From assembly GCA_965199685.1 (NCBI GenBank), contig OZ241323.1, forward strand, positions 90,619 through 154,618: DNA of 64,000 nucleotides, read 5' to 3'. Each line of letters begins with the position of its first letter. Position 1 is the first letter of the stretch. Positions 29,163 to 30,773 of the stretch are shown piece by piece. The notes beneath the pieces were generated by a model. That model did not search any database and was not told where the DNA came from. It saw only the letters and a program-made list of their open reading frames with translations. Origin of the DNA: an uncultured candidatus Porisulfidus sp. GTDB lineage: Bacteria; Pseudomonadota; Gammaproteobacteria; Poriferisulfidales; Oxydemutatoraceae. The position numbers were made by a program, and so were the translations under genes.

Positions 29163-30773
29163 ATGAACAGAAAAGAAATGATAGTCAATATACAAAAAGA
29201 CTGGAACGAGAACCCCCACTGGGAAAACATCAAGCGCACCTGCGGTGTGGGAGATGCCGTCTGCGTGAATGGTTTGGTGCACAGAGCGTATGCTGATGCG
29301 CGTTTGGGGTTGGAGAAATTATGGAACTTATTAAAGGAAGGATCTAAAACAAACGAAGTTTTCAGGCTGTCTTTGATTACCATTATTTTGACTTTGGTCG
29401 TAGCGATAGGTGGTTGCTATGCTCAGAAAGGAACTATCCCTCAATATCAAGACAATCAAAGTGATAGGTATAACGATGAGGAAGGCGTAGAGCAAGAAGA
29501 CCAGGAAGAGGAATTTAAGCAGTATCAGAAAGCAGCTGAGCAAGGAGATGCGTCTGCTCAATACAGACTCGGGGAGATGTATGCCGAAGGTGAAGGCGTG
29601 GCACAAGATGATCAGCAGGCGGTTGAATGGTTTAGAAAAGCAGCTGAGCAAGGAGATGCGGCTGCTCAAACCGAACTTGGGGAGATGTATTACTATGGCA
29701 GGGGCGTGGCACAAGATGATCAGCAGGCGGTTGAATGGTTTAGAAAAGCAGCTGAGCAAGGATATGCGTCTGCTCAAAACAACCTTGGGTGGATGTATGA
29801 CGAAGGCAGAGGCGTGGCAGAAGATGATTGGCAGGCGGTTGAATGGTATAGAAAAGCAGCTGAGCAAGGACATGCATTTGCTCAAGACAACCTTGGGGAG
29901 ATGTATAAAGAAGGCAGAGGCGTGGCACAAGATGATCAGCAGGCGATTGAATGGTTTAGAAAAGCAGCTGAGCAAGGAGATGCATCTGCTCAATTCAACC
30001 TTGGGCTGATGTATTACAAAGGCAGAGGCGTGGAACAAGGTGATGAGCAAGCGGTTGAATGGTATAGAAAAGCAGCTGAGCAAGGAGATGTGCGTGCTCA
30101 AAACAACCTTGGGGCGATGTATCAAGAAGGCAGAGGCGTGGTACAAGATGATCGGCAGGCGGTTGAATGGTTTAGAAAAGCAGCTGAGCAAGGAGAGGCA
30201 TATGCCCAAGGCTGGCTTGGGATGATGTATCAAGAAGGCAGAGGCGTGGCACAAGATGATTGGCAGGCGGTTGAATGGTATAGAAAAGCAGCTGAGCAAG
30301 GACATGCACCTGCTCAAAGCAGCCTTGGGTGGATGTATCAAGAAGGCAGAGGCGTGGCACAAGATGATTGGCAGGCGGTTGAATGGTATAGAAAAGCAGC
30401 TGAGCAAGGAGATGCGTCTGCTCAAAGCAACCTTGGGTGGATGTATCAAGAAGGTAGAGGCGTGGCACAAGATGATTGGCAGGCGGTTGAATGGTATAGA
30501 AAAGCAGCTGAGCAAGAAAATGCATATGCTCAAAGCAACCTTGGGTGGATGTATGGTGAAGGCAGAGGCGTGGCAGAAGATGATCGGCAGGCGGTTGAAT
30601 GGTATAGAAAAGCAGCTGAGCAAGGACTTGCACAAGCTCAATACAACCTTGGGGTGATGTATAGAGAAGGTAGAGGCGTGGCACAAGATGATTGGCAGGC
30701 GATTGAATGGTTTAGAAAAGCAGCTGCGCAAGGACATGCGGATGCTCAATCTAAGCTGTCATCCTATCAATGA
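29163..30773 (+). CDS. Sel1-repeat protein carrying the long-form N-terminal anchor module (copy L4, domain-swapped)
   Basis: N-terminal 110 aa are homologous to the long forms (MNRKEMIVNIQKDWNENPHWENIKRTCGV..LSLITIILTLVVAIGGC..EEGVEQEDQEEEF). They are followed by ~11 Sel1-like 36-aa repeats (AEQGDASAQ..LG.MY.EGRGVAQDD.QAVEWYRKA) encoded by near-identical 108-bp tandem DNA repeats at 29530..30750. ORF track starts at 29127. Confidence 0.8.
   Translation: MNRKEMIVNIQKDWNENPHWENIKRTCGVGDAVCVNGLVHRAYADARLGLEKLWNLLKEGSKTNEVFRLSLITIILTLVVAIGGCYAQKGTIPQYQDNQSDRYNDEEGVEQEDQEEEFKQYQKAAEQGDASAQYRLGEMYAEGEGVAQDDQQAVEWFRKAAEQGDAAAQTELGEMYYYGRGVAQDDQQAVEWFRKAAEQGYASAQNNLGWMYDEGRGVAEDDWQAVEWYRKAAEQGHAFAQDNLGEMYKEGRGVAQDDQQAIEWFRKAAEQGDASAQFNLGLMYYKGRGVEQGDEQAVEWYRKAAEQGDVRAQNNLGAMYQEGRGVVQDDRQAVEWFRKAAEQGEAYAQGWLGMMYQEGRGVAQDDWQAVEWYRKAAEQGHAPAQSSLGWMYQEGRGVAQDDWQAVEWYRKAAEQGDASAQSNLGWMYQEGRGVAQDDWQAVEWYRKAAEQENAYAQSNLGWMYGEGRGVAEDDRQAVEWYRKAAEQGLAQAQYNLGVMYREGRGVAQDDWQAIEWFRKAAAQGHADAQSKLSSYQ

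Follow-up and report, generated by a model that had tools for sequence, protein, structure and literature searches.

A chimeric Sel1-repeat gene in Candidatus Porisulfidus, probably headed by a duplicated 5' end of the lineage's own isocitrate lyase gene

Sel1-like repeat (SLR) proteins are common in bacteria, and those of the EsiB, LpnE, EnhC and HcpC type are exported and serve protein–protein contacts, in several cases with factors of the host. Sel1-type repeats are also found in envelope proteins such as MerG, ExoR, MotX and AlgK, the last of which is an outer-membrane lipoprotein. A different kind of modularity is displayed by polymorphic toxin loci, in which C-terminal cassettes are swapped (Zhang et al., 2012; PMC3482391). 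The gene described here, located at 29163..30773 in a 64,000-nt stretch of the genome of an uncultured candidatus Porisulfidus sp. (hereafter the window, GC content ~43%; the gene, its parts, its paralogs and the remnants given below lie on its forward, +, strand), bears likeness to both groups, and we consider it likely to encode a chimeric, exported Sel1 solenoid placed under a duplicated 5' cassette of aceA, the isocitrate lyase (ICL) gene.

The Sel1 array spans 29529..30716 and comprises eleven repeats of 36 aa (108 bp) each, followed at 30717..30773 by a terminal half repeat (KAAAQGHADAQSKLSSYQ; aa 519–536) and the stop codon, in agreement with the approximately eleven 108-bp units proposed in a first-pass annotation of the window. 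Pfam identifies 11 Sel1 stretches (PF08238; E 3.9e-126; 407.5 bits, above the gathering threshold of 30.7), and Tandem Repeats Finder reports 11.2 copies of a 108-bp period at 29529..30739, with 87% matches. When compared one by one, the 108-bp units show a mean identity of 86.8% (range 80.6–95.4%), meaning that they are indeed repeat units, but that their initial description as near-identical was somewhat overstated. Their substitutions fall on the usual variable positions of Sel1 repeats and leave the framework unbroken, a pattern that would be typical of binding-surface diversification. The AF2 model predicts an alpha-solenoid of 13-residue helices paired every 36 aa (pLDDT ~98 for aa 186–536) and, together with sequence matches to solved SLR structures, points to the alpha/alpha hairpin solenoid of SLR proteins. 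The closest matches in this respect are the tandem 36-aa Sel1 solenoids of EsiB (Escherichia coli CFT073 c5321, PDB 4BWR; E 1e-116) and of Oxalobacter SLR proteins (6OK3; E 1e-111), followed by Legionella LpnE (6DEH; E 2e-59), with which EnhC is grouped, and Helicobacter pylori HcpC (1OUV; E 4e-38). The repeats of the Hcp family, however, each carry a disulfide-forming Cys pair, whereas the Sel1 repeats of the window contain none (the only three Cys residues of the ORF are at positions 27, 34 and 85), which sets the protein apart from that family. The likeness to MerG, AlgK, ExoR and MotX resides at the repeat level and does not amount to orthology, with all NCBIfam scores below the curated cut-offs for equivalogs (294/350, 163/700, 162/450 and 123/330 bits, respectively). 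By itself, the Sel1 gene of the window is ordinary. It departs from known SLR proteins in the unusual uniformity of its array (87% DNA identity between units; the solenoid measures ~415 aa and has a net charge of about -38), and in the ICL-derived N-terminus and the lipobox at residue 85 that precede it.

The gene constitutes an intact 536-aa ORF, running from an ATG at 29163 to a stop codon at 30771–30773 with no internal stops. A leader of ~150 nt, preceded by a promoter-like site matching the consensus in a promoter scan (TTGAAG-17-TATTAT, 28982–29010), leads to a strong ribosome-binding site (GGAGG, 29153–29157) located 5 nt 5' of the ATG, and no comparable site accompanies the alternative, longer start at GTG 29127. 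Furthermore, the MNR residues at the start of the ORF read from ATG 29163 are also those that open the aceA homolog. The first 59 codons (29163..29339; MNRKEMIVNIQK...) make up an in-frame copy of the ICL N-terminus, hereafter aceA'. The first 64 residues of the protein match aa 5–68 of an ICL of known structure (PDB 3i4e; E 2.1e-10), and the NCBIfam isocitrate lyase model PRK15063 is matched by the paralogous copy at 23771 (E 6e-11). Codons 1–59 share 71–79% amino acid identity with the 425-aa ICLs encoded in the source genome and in relatives (P0240, P0231), compared to ~55% with other ICLs. At the DNA level, on a contig of a related strain that carries the true aceA (L008), positions 4001–4178 are 84% identical to the codons of the Sel1 gene, up to codon 59/60, and the homology extends into the region upstream of both genes, where L008 positions 3762–3823 correspond to 28980–29041 and positions 3877–4000 to 29039–29162 (82–84% identity). 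The segment from about 28980 to 29162 can thus be traced to the aceA upstream region and, overall, aceA homology amounts to 82–86% DNA identity, including non-coding upstream sequence with a conserved -35/-10-like site.

The relationship with isocitrate lyase (AceA, PF00463) is one of DNA homology that covers codons 1–59 and ~180–240 nt of upstream sequence with the ribosome-binding site. The chimera has only the N-terminal helices of ICL and lacks the TIM barrel and catalytic loop, and its product is hence not an enzyme; the match covers only profile positions 3–57 of 526, and scores stay below the family thresholds (17–19 bits versus a cutoff of 26 for Pfam, 41.8 versus 562 for NCBIfam). Since an intact 425-aa ICL (P0240) is encoded on the same 2,878,237-bp contig as the paralogs described below, the module can be interpreted as a duplicate, rather than as a disrupted aceA. 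These comparisons of sequence identify the upstream ~180 nt and codons 1–59 of the shared 5' module as a DNA-level copy of the promoter region, leader and start of the lineage's own aceA, and the first-pass annotation's reading of the initial residues as a cytoplasmic module dedicated to anchoring is not borne out, because those codons, the promoter-like region and the leader reproduce the 5' end of aceA. Consensus folding of the shared leader (-7 kcal/mol, essentially nil covariation) gave no indication of a structured regulatory RNA, and searches of the window with Rfam (gathering threshold) and a tRNA scan returned no matches.

The end of the aceA homology, the invariant alignment columns and the hydropathy profile define a fusion junction (GSKTNEVFR) and, immediately after it, a lipoprotein-type signal (together 29340..29417). 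The signal has a hydrophobic core (LSLITIILTLVVA) and a lipobox (AIGG-C) ending at Cys85 (29415–29417), and the most hydrophobic 19-mer of the protein is found at aa 69–87 (LSLITIILTLVVAIGGCYA). Cys85 is invariant in the six window copies and in relatives, with lipobox variants AISGC and AITGC, and LTLVVAIGG-C85 conforms to the PROSITE PS51257-type rule, in which an uncharged hydrophobic core leads to [LVI][ASTVIG][GAS]-C. An acidic and probably disordered linker follows (aa 86–122, ...DEEGVEQEDQEEEFKQYQ; 29418..29528), with a net charge of -7 after Cys85 and AF2 pLDDT values below 50 for aa 83–111. Both the transmembrane/lipobox segment and the acidic linker that had been proposed initially are thus present. 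The lipobox Cys of lipoproteins is usually found at about residues 15–35, after a short basic n-region. Here it lies at residue 85, with 65 residues ahead of the hydrophobic core, and we know of no verifiable precedent for a lipoprotein with a pre-sequence of roughly 65 aa. Because Cys85 is far beyond the usual position, its processing by signal peptidase II is putative and should be regarded as uncertain.

The same 5' module is found in five long-form paralogs carrying a 4-Cys domain. The first of them (A, 19668..20534) combines aceA', the lipoprotein signal, the linker, an orphan Sel1 half-repeat and the 4-Cys domain; the remaining four are located at 23789..24664 (B), at 27696..28550 (C, directly upstream of the Sel1 gene and identical in protein sequence to P0202 of the 2,878,237-bp contig), at 34861..35727 (D) and at 43366..44229 (E, with its junction after a second linker piece, AQDNQSDRYND). 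The Sel1 gene shares 125–133 N-terminal aa with these ORFs (70–75% identity; tblastn E 1e-44 to 1e-58), more than the ~110 aa first reported, and this similarity is in frame, rather than confined to non-coding repeats. In self-blast comparisons, DNA similarity reaches 85–87% from 28885 to 29561 and includes ~278 nt before the ATG; this 5' flank (28885..29162) aligns with sequence starting at 19405, 23541, 27456 and 34621, bearing out the proposal of a common promoter and leader for the long forms, with the exception of paralog E, which keeps only ~38 nt of the shared leader. The module is open in all six window copies. Paralog B belongs to the second copy of a ~4.1-kb tandem unit (19389–23314 versus 23525–27455, 92% match). 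Remnants of a further Sel1-type gene, previously noted as abutting IS3 copies, were located as 3' ends (…YEQDQELKRYRRAAEQGHADAQSALSSYQ*) at about 23039..23131, adjoining an IS3 copy, and at about 27180..27272, starting directly at the inverted-repeat end of the IS3 at 25739..27179; the final 59 nt of both are 90% identical to 30719–30777, at the terminal half repeat of the Sel1 gene. A fold search with the 4-Cys domain yielded only weak SH3-like matches; in P0331, this domain and Sel1 repeats share a single polypeptide. IS3, IS481-like and IS256-like elements are seen around the module copies, and the window holds other odd chimeras, in which the IS3 OrfA HTH is fused to TPR arrays.

Related metagenome contigs extend this picture. 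A syntenic ortholog of the Sel1 gene (L007, 11536..13164), found through its neighboring 4-Cys gene and not through Sel1 protein searches, reads open to the end of its contig, over at least 543 codons; a search with the full-length Sel1 protein was swamped by kinase, caspase and protease fusions with longer Sel1 arrays, and did not include it. With both ORFs open, the Sel1 gene cannot be dismissed as a pseudogene. The ortholog presents one additional Sel1 repeat and a linker duplication of 37 aa with respect to the window gene, confirming that repeat number differs between strains, a comparison suggested in the first-pass annotation. In relatives, the module is also fused to TPR arrays (P0326, L004, L009), and one such copy (L009, 2184..3011) has lost the signal peptide, retaining of the module only the aceA start, 15 codons and a portion of the linker. 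Frameshifted or deleted copies are found as well (L007 1702, L004, L009), on contigs with a coverage of only 2–3x. Sister closed genomes with ICL lack the module family. Alignment of the module against a genome collection, whose representatives exclude the source genome and its relatives, returned only two ordinary ICL loci (L002, L003), and a 26-nt pattern taken from the region of the signal peptide had 0 matches in JGI metagenomes. Exact-match look-ups with the Sel1 protein of the window, with the 741-aa protein encoded downstream and with P0240 returned no records. The module family was found only in the source genome and in a handful of metagenome contigs from close relatives, and its general reach is accordingly limited. 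Ribosomal protein S7 clusters at ≥90% with metagenome-assembled genomes labeled Gammaproteobacteria or Chromatiales, in keeping with the gammaproteobacterial half of the first-pass comparison with intracellular gammaproteobacteria; nothing observed here points to an intracellular lifestyle. 'Ca. Taurinisymbion', a sponge LS-SOB symbiont whose MAG measures 2.35 Mb and whose glyoxylate bypass is expressed (PMC10356861), was discarded as a candidate for the organism on grounds of base composition, given that MAGs from Ianthella basta have a mean GC content of ~61% (PMC10947273), versus ~43% in the window.

The locus was initially explained by an evolved, generic anchoring or display module onto which cargos were swapped, with Sel1 repeats replacing the 4-Cys domain in the gene at 29163. 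One 5' module is indeed carried on three cargo types (Sel1, 4-Cys and TPR), and the six copies of the window all conserve its lipobox, hydrophobic core and acidic linker, but several observations make this explanation rather unlikely. An enzyme fragment, accompanied by the promoter and leader native to it, makes up half of the module, whose amino acid sequence is barely constrained. The shared block, moreover, closes with the initial helix of a Sel1 repeat (KAAEQGDAxAQ), which corresponds to the opening 33 nt of the array (KAAEQGDASAQ) in the Sel1 gene and is left as an orphan in the five 4-Cys long forms. The presence of this orphan half-repeat in all of them suggests that the Sel1 gene is the likely source of the module and that the 4-Cys long forms derive from a Sel1-type gene, in the direction opposite to the one proposed. 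The 4-Cys domain is also encoded by free-standing genes, each with its own ordinary Sec signal, and an aceA-rooted tree, distance-based and computed on ~300 nt that gene conversion could blur, has the Sel1 genes branching off first. In addition, the leader of the L007 ortholog has kept an aceA-like segment that was lost in the other copies, and the 4.1-kb units end in Sel1 3' remnants. Lastly, the TPR copy that kept the aceA start and deleted the anchor (L009) indicates that the constant, reused part is an expression and start cassette, and not the anchor. The notion of one 5' module bearing different cargos hence stands, while that of the anchor as its constant part does not.

The abnormal position of the lipobox in the full ORF could also be explained by an ordinary lipoprotein initiated just before the hydrophobic core, with the aceA piece acting only as promoter and 5' UTR. 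In a related copy (P0335), a 1-nt change generates, 30 residues ahead of the lipobox Cys, an in-frame ATG that would yield a signal of canonical length (MEHIQGGSQTNKVVRLSLITIVLTLAIAGC), and AAGGAAGG is found at the junction. The Sel1 gene of the window, however, lacks any in-frame ATG or GTG from codon 39 to the hydrophobic core, the sole candidate being a TTG at L71 that would leave no charged n-region; an internal start codon giving a canonical lipoprotein is thus absent from it. With the best ribosome-binding site belonging to the aceA ATG and the aceA frame open in all window copies, internal initiation seems very improbable. A broader alternative takes the chimera to be a by-product of IS-driven rearrangement, open but functionally unimportant, and either decaying or unexpressed. 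The IS elements and odd chimeras noted above, the restriction of the family to one sub-lineage, with ICL-bearing sister closed genomes lacking it, and the many broken copies on related contigs would all fit such a scenario, and protein-level constraint on the chimera appears weak. Among 12 copies of the aceA part, 12 synonymous and 38 non-synonymous variants were counted (ratio 0.70, p = 0.18, with low power), pairwise NG omega values for this part range, also with low power, from 0.1 to 1.1, the 4-Cys cargo shows an equal variant ratio (~0.7), and pN/pS between the Sel1 gene and its ortholog is 0.77 overall and 0.91 in the array. Set against this are the six of six copies open in a closed genome, the absence of indels from the first 85 codons in 12 copies, when the leader has several, the maintenance in two strains of an open 1.6-kb repeat array despite frequent recombination, and the confinement of repeat substitutions to the variable Sel1 positions. 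We hence regard the by-product scenario as unlikely, and favor an exported Sel1 chimera led by a duplicated aceA 5' cassette.

Beyond SLR proteins, the closest parallels to this arrangement are provided by new chimeric genes that arise through capture of a promoter or 5' end and by the cassette swapping of polymorphic toxin loci, with which it shares a constant 5' expression and trafficking part recombined with alternative C-terminal parts, free-standing cargo copies adjoining the fused genes, and the clustering of copies among mobile elements. On the other hand, no toxin or immunity domains were recognized here, the constant part comes from a metabolic enzyme gene, and the free-standing 4-Cys genes have signal peptides of their own, which makes them complete genes rather than silent cassettes.

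In the scenario that we favor, homology suggests that an in-frame fusion placed a duplicated stretch of aceA ahead of the signal peptide encoded by a Sel1-repeat lipoprotein gene. This stretch would contain ~180–240 nt with the promoter region and leader, together with the ribosome-binding site and the first 59 codons, start codon included. Translation would most likely start at the aceA-derived ATG, and the promoter and leader of aceA would be expected to set expression. The product would keep its 59 ICL-derived residues, along with a short basic segment, on the cytoplasmic side, the hydrophobic core (aa 69–84) would insert with an N-in/C-out orientation, and Cys85 would be either lipid-modified and cleaved, as in a lipoprotein, or part of an uncleaved signal anchor. 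The acidic, flexible linker of ~40 aa and the Sel1 alpha-solenoid would then lie outside the cytoplasm, where the solenoid could operate as a protein-binding scaffold. Unequal recombination between 108-bp units presumably accounts for changes in array length such as that seen in the ortholog. The 5' ~700 bp of the gene (leader, aceA', signal, linker and first Sel1 helix) was probably recombined subsequently onto a secreted 4-Cys domain, giving rise to the five long-form paralogs, which were then amplified in the ~4.1-kb IS-containing tandem unit. TPR arrays of a related strain carry this 5' end as well. A more ambitious proposal, by which the aceA 5' cassette serves as a launch pad, repeatedly recombined onto genes for repeat proteins and secreted domains to put a set of envelope or host-contact proteins under glyoxylate-shunt regulation, and the 59 ICL residues may be kept, in the anchored forms, as a cytoplasmic tail still in contact with native ICL or its regulators, linking carbon metabolism to surface display, strikes us as quite doubtful at present.

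The locus preserves a complete trail by which the promoter, leader and 59 codons of a metabolic gene were duplicated, fused to a lipoprotein signal and subsequently passed on to three or more unrelated C-terminal parts, and the scars of this assembly, namely the orphan Sel1 half-repeat, the duplicated linker and the 3' remnants beside IS3, can still be read. A lipobox located 85 residues from the start would test the limits of signal peptidase II substrates, and the structure of these genes predicts envelope proteins that would be co-regulated with the glyoxylate shunt. Although restricted to one lineage, the family provides a clear case of the generation of new genes through the reuse of a 5' end.

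The gene at 29163..30773 (+) of the window is an intact open reading frame of 536 amino acids, preceded by GGAGG (29153-29157) ahead of its ATG at 29163, and Pfam identifies 11 Sel1 repeats (PF08238, E 3.9e-126) in its product. At the DNA level, Tandem Repeats Finder reports a period of 108 bp with 11.2 copies and 87% matches over 29529..30739, and a unit-by-unit count resolves 11 full units (29529-30716), closed by a half repeat, with a mean pairwise identity of 86.8% (range 80.6-95.4%) and a longest exact internal repeat of 60 nt. The first-pass annotation had called these units near-identical; the 108-bp period and the count of ~11 hold, but their identity is lower than that term implies. 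The N-terminus shared with the long forms, the five window genes in which it precedes a four-cysteine (4-Cys) domain, had been put at ~110 aa. It is real and somewhat longer: 125-133 N-terminal residues are 70-75% identical to the products of the ORFs from 19668, 23789, 27696, 34861 and 43366, and DNA similarity of 85-87% spans 28885 to 29561, including ~278 nt upstream of the ATG. Remnants of such genes reported near IS3 copies were recovered as two Sel1-type 3' pieces, one at ~23039-23131 and the other at ~27180-27272, starting exactly at the inverted-repeat end of the IS3 copy 25739..27179. The earlier description of an intact ORF with 11 Sel1 repeats and an N-terminus common to the long forms is thus correct in substance.

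By sequence, the first ~60 residues of the Sel1 protein are the N-terminus of isocitrate lyase (ICL). A PDB sequence search aligned residues 1-64 with residues 5-68 of ICL 3i4e (E 2.1e-10), NCBIfam returned isocitrate lyase at 6e-11, and Pfam gave a weak ICL match to profile positions 3-57. Among 5.8 billion proteins, the best ICL matches were 425-aa enzymes of this bacterial group with 71-79% identity, one of which (P0240) is encoded on the same 2,878,237-bp contig as the window's paralogs; other ICLs were ~55% identical. In a closely related strain, the genuine aceA locus (L008, ENA sample ERZ25067984), with purL upstream and an isocitrate dehydrogenase gene downstream, matches window 29039-29340 at 3877-4178 (84% DNA identity) and window 28980-29041 at 3762-3823 (82%). 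The match includes non-coding upstream sequence, and both hexamers of the only sigma-70-like site that a promoter scan detected ahead of the Sel1 gene (TTGAAG-17-TATTAT, 28982-29010) are conserved in aceA. The promoter and leader that had been proposed as common to the long forms can thus be identified as the aceA promoter region and leader. In the alignment, aceA homology stops at codon 59/60, followed directly by the basic stretch GSKTNEVFR and then by a hydrophobic core with a lipobox (LSLITIILTLVVAIGG-C85), the acidic linker and KAAEQGDASAQ, the first helix of a Sel1 repeat. The residues that had been read as a cytoplasmic module are therefore an enzyme fragment.

The Sel1 array itself is a bona fide SLR solenoid, with EsiB (4BWR), the Oxalobacter SLR proteins, LpnE and HcpC as its closest solved relatives. 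The cysteine pairs of Hcp proteins are absent from it. The AF2 model (mean pLDDT 85.5) predicts low-confidence helices for residues 1-82 (pLDDT 51-64), a disordered stretch at 83-111 and a very confident alpha-solenoid from residue ~114, with pLDDT ~98 from residue 186 on. Charge is basic ahead of the hydrophobic core and strongly acidic behind it (net ~-38 after Cys85), a distribution that favours an N-in/C-out topology. Near the hydrophobic core, neither an ATG nor a GTG in frame is accompanied by a ribosome-binding site, so the best call for the translation start is the aceA ATG at 29163, which would place the lipobox cysteine at residue 85. Under lipoprotein criteria the motif is present, but out of position, and the precursor could be either an Lgt/LspA-processed lipoprotein or a retained signal-anchored protein. 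Orthology to AlgK, MerG, ExoR and MotX was rejected, all four scoring below the NCBIfam cut-off, as was the identity of the full protein as an ICL.

No family could be assigned to the 4-Cys domain, and its fold matches were only weak and SH3-like. Alignment places it also in five free-standing genes of the window (20983.., 25142.., 18383.. (-), 39675.. (-) and 33579.. (-)), each with an ordinary Sec-type signal peptide. The first-pass annotation had the Sel1 array replacing this domain behind a generic anchor, but several features indicate the reverse direction. All five long forms carry an orphan Sel1 half-repeat, KAAEQGDAxAQ, just ahead of the 4-Cys part, and the long form at 43366 is joined after a second linker piece, AQDNQSDRYND, which is exactly the linker duplication of the related strain's Sel1 ortholog. 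In a neighbour-joining tree of the leader and aceA-derived start, rooted on aceA, the first branch comprises the two Sel1 genes, and the leader of the ortholog (on contig L007) retains an aceA-like segment of ~30 nt absent from other copies. Lastly, two ~4.1-kb tandem units (19389-23314 and 23525-27455, 92% identical), each consisting of leader, long-form 4-Cys gene, IS481-like transposase fragment, short-form 4-Cys gene and IS3 (-), end in a Sel1 3' remnant; a third, truncated unit (27456-28621) lies ahead of the Sel1 gene, and the arrangement recurs in the related metagenome contig L006/L007. Taken together, these observations indicate that a Sel1-type gene probably donated the 5' ~700 bp of the 4-Cys long forms, a reading based on scars and a short tree that gene conversion could blur.

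All six module gene copies in the window are open. The syntenic L007 ortholog (11536..13164) is likewise uninterrupted over at least 543 codons, until its contig stops. The region around it shows 90-97% identity to window 19.4-29.6 kb and the shared parts of the two Sel1 genes are 97% identical, but the ortholog has one additional Sel1 repeat and carries 37 aa of linker and half-repeat in duplicate, a length polymorphism of the kind that the first-pass annotation had suggested looking for. Constraint on the protein appears to be weak: pS is 0.029 and pN 0.022 between the orthologs (ratio 0.77 overall, 0.91 in the array), based on small counts and a contig at 2x coverage, and 12 copies of the aceA part show 12 synonymous versus 38 non-synonymous variants (ratio 0.70, p = 0.18), about equal to the 4-Cys cargo (0.68-0.70). 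Codons 1-85 contain no stop and no indel in 12 copies, whereas several indels occur in the leader. Within the 36-aa unit, the differences between the 11 repeats cluster at positions 7, 9, 12, 13, 16, 19 and 29, and the framework is invariant.

The module is very rare. Its 133-aa N-terminus has seven matches among 5.8 billion proteins, a set that holds ~30 long and short 4-Cys proteins, and the 4-Cys domain forms ~20 clusters among 1.84 billion representatives. Every module-bearing protein comes from this genome or a few ENA metagenome contigs, and the sister closed genomes (2.2-2.7 Mb) have ICL and no module gene among the matches listed. The organism is gammaproteobacterial according to the labels on S7 proteins with at least 90% identity to its own. 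Other cargos occur in the related strain, where the module is fused to TPRs in P0326 (L009 6001-6468) and on L004. Two variants (both ERZ25067984) lie on contigs at 2-3x coverage, where sequencing errors are possible. L009 2184..3011 has lost the signal peptide and retains, ahead of six TPRs, only the start of aceA with 15 codons and a portion of the linker, and in P0335 a 1-nt frame change removes the ICL part and yields a lipoprotein signal of canonical form, 30 residues long. P0331, a 4-Cys protein that is more distant, ends in three Sel1 repeats, so both cargos also co-occur in one chain. The modular pattern resembles 5'-end or promoter capture giving rise to new chimeric genes, and the way in which cassettes are combined in polymorphic toxin loci (PMC3482391), but neither toxin nor immunity features were detected.

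Two further large proteins of the window, encoded at 4724..6784 (+) and 7572..9833 (-) (686 and 753 aa, 14-18 TPRs), give a second example of repeats joined in frame to the start of a gene unrelated to them: their first ~65 aa are the helix-turn-helix of an IS3 OrfA transposase (HTH_Tnp_1, E 1e-17 and 4e-15). Other large repeat proteins, which match no known family, are encoded at 48016..50526 (-) (836 aa; 93-bp x 9.5 repeats, 96% identity, 48426-49310) and 36853..38835 (+) (660 aa; 42-bp x 21.6 repeats, 37630-38538). A G+C-rich, REP- or MITE-like intergenic repeat with hairpin potential (~60-150 nt, 90-95% identity) is dispersed in longer copies (51894-52042, 39518-39667, 15206-15346) and shorter pieces (834-897, 28763-28817, 19191-19283 (-), 34350-34442 (-), 23253-23315 (-), 27394-27455 (-)); copies flank the leaders of module genes, and one lies upstream of the related strain's aceA (L008 3581-3734). 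Directly downstream of the Sel1 gene, after a 117-nt spacer in which no terminator was found, 30890..33115 (+) encodes a 741-aa vanadium-dependent bromoperoxidase (VBPO) homolog (PDB 5lpc, E 4e-129; Corallina VBPO 1qhb, E 8e-108) with no Pfam or NCBIfam matches and an internal 45-nt x2 tandem repeat (32158-32247). As a VBPO from a bacterium, in this case a gammaproteobacterium that may be host-associated, it could be of interest with regard to halogenated natural products.

The Sel1 gene is thus real and intact, with its origin explained, and its product may, by analogy with Legionella SLR proteins, take part in host interaction. Its evolutionary trail is unusually clear and the family is lineage-restricted, presenting what on sequence grounds is an SLR envelope protein whose enzyme-derived front end doubles as a reusable 5' cassette.
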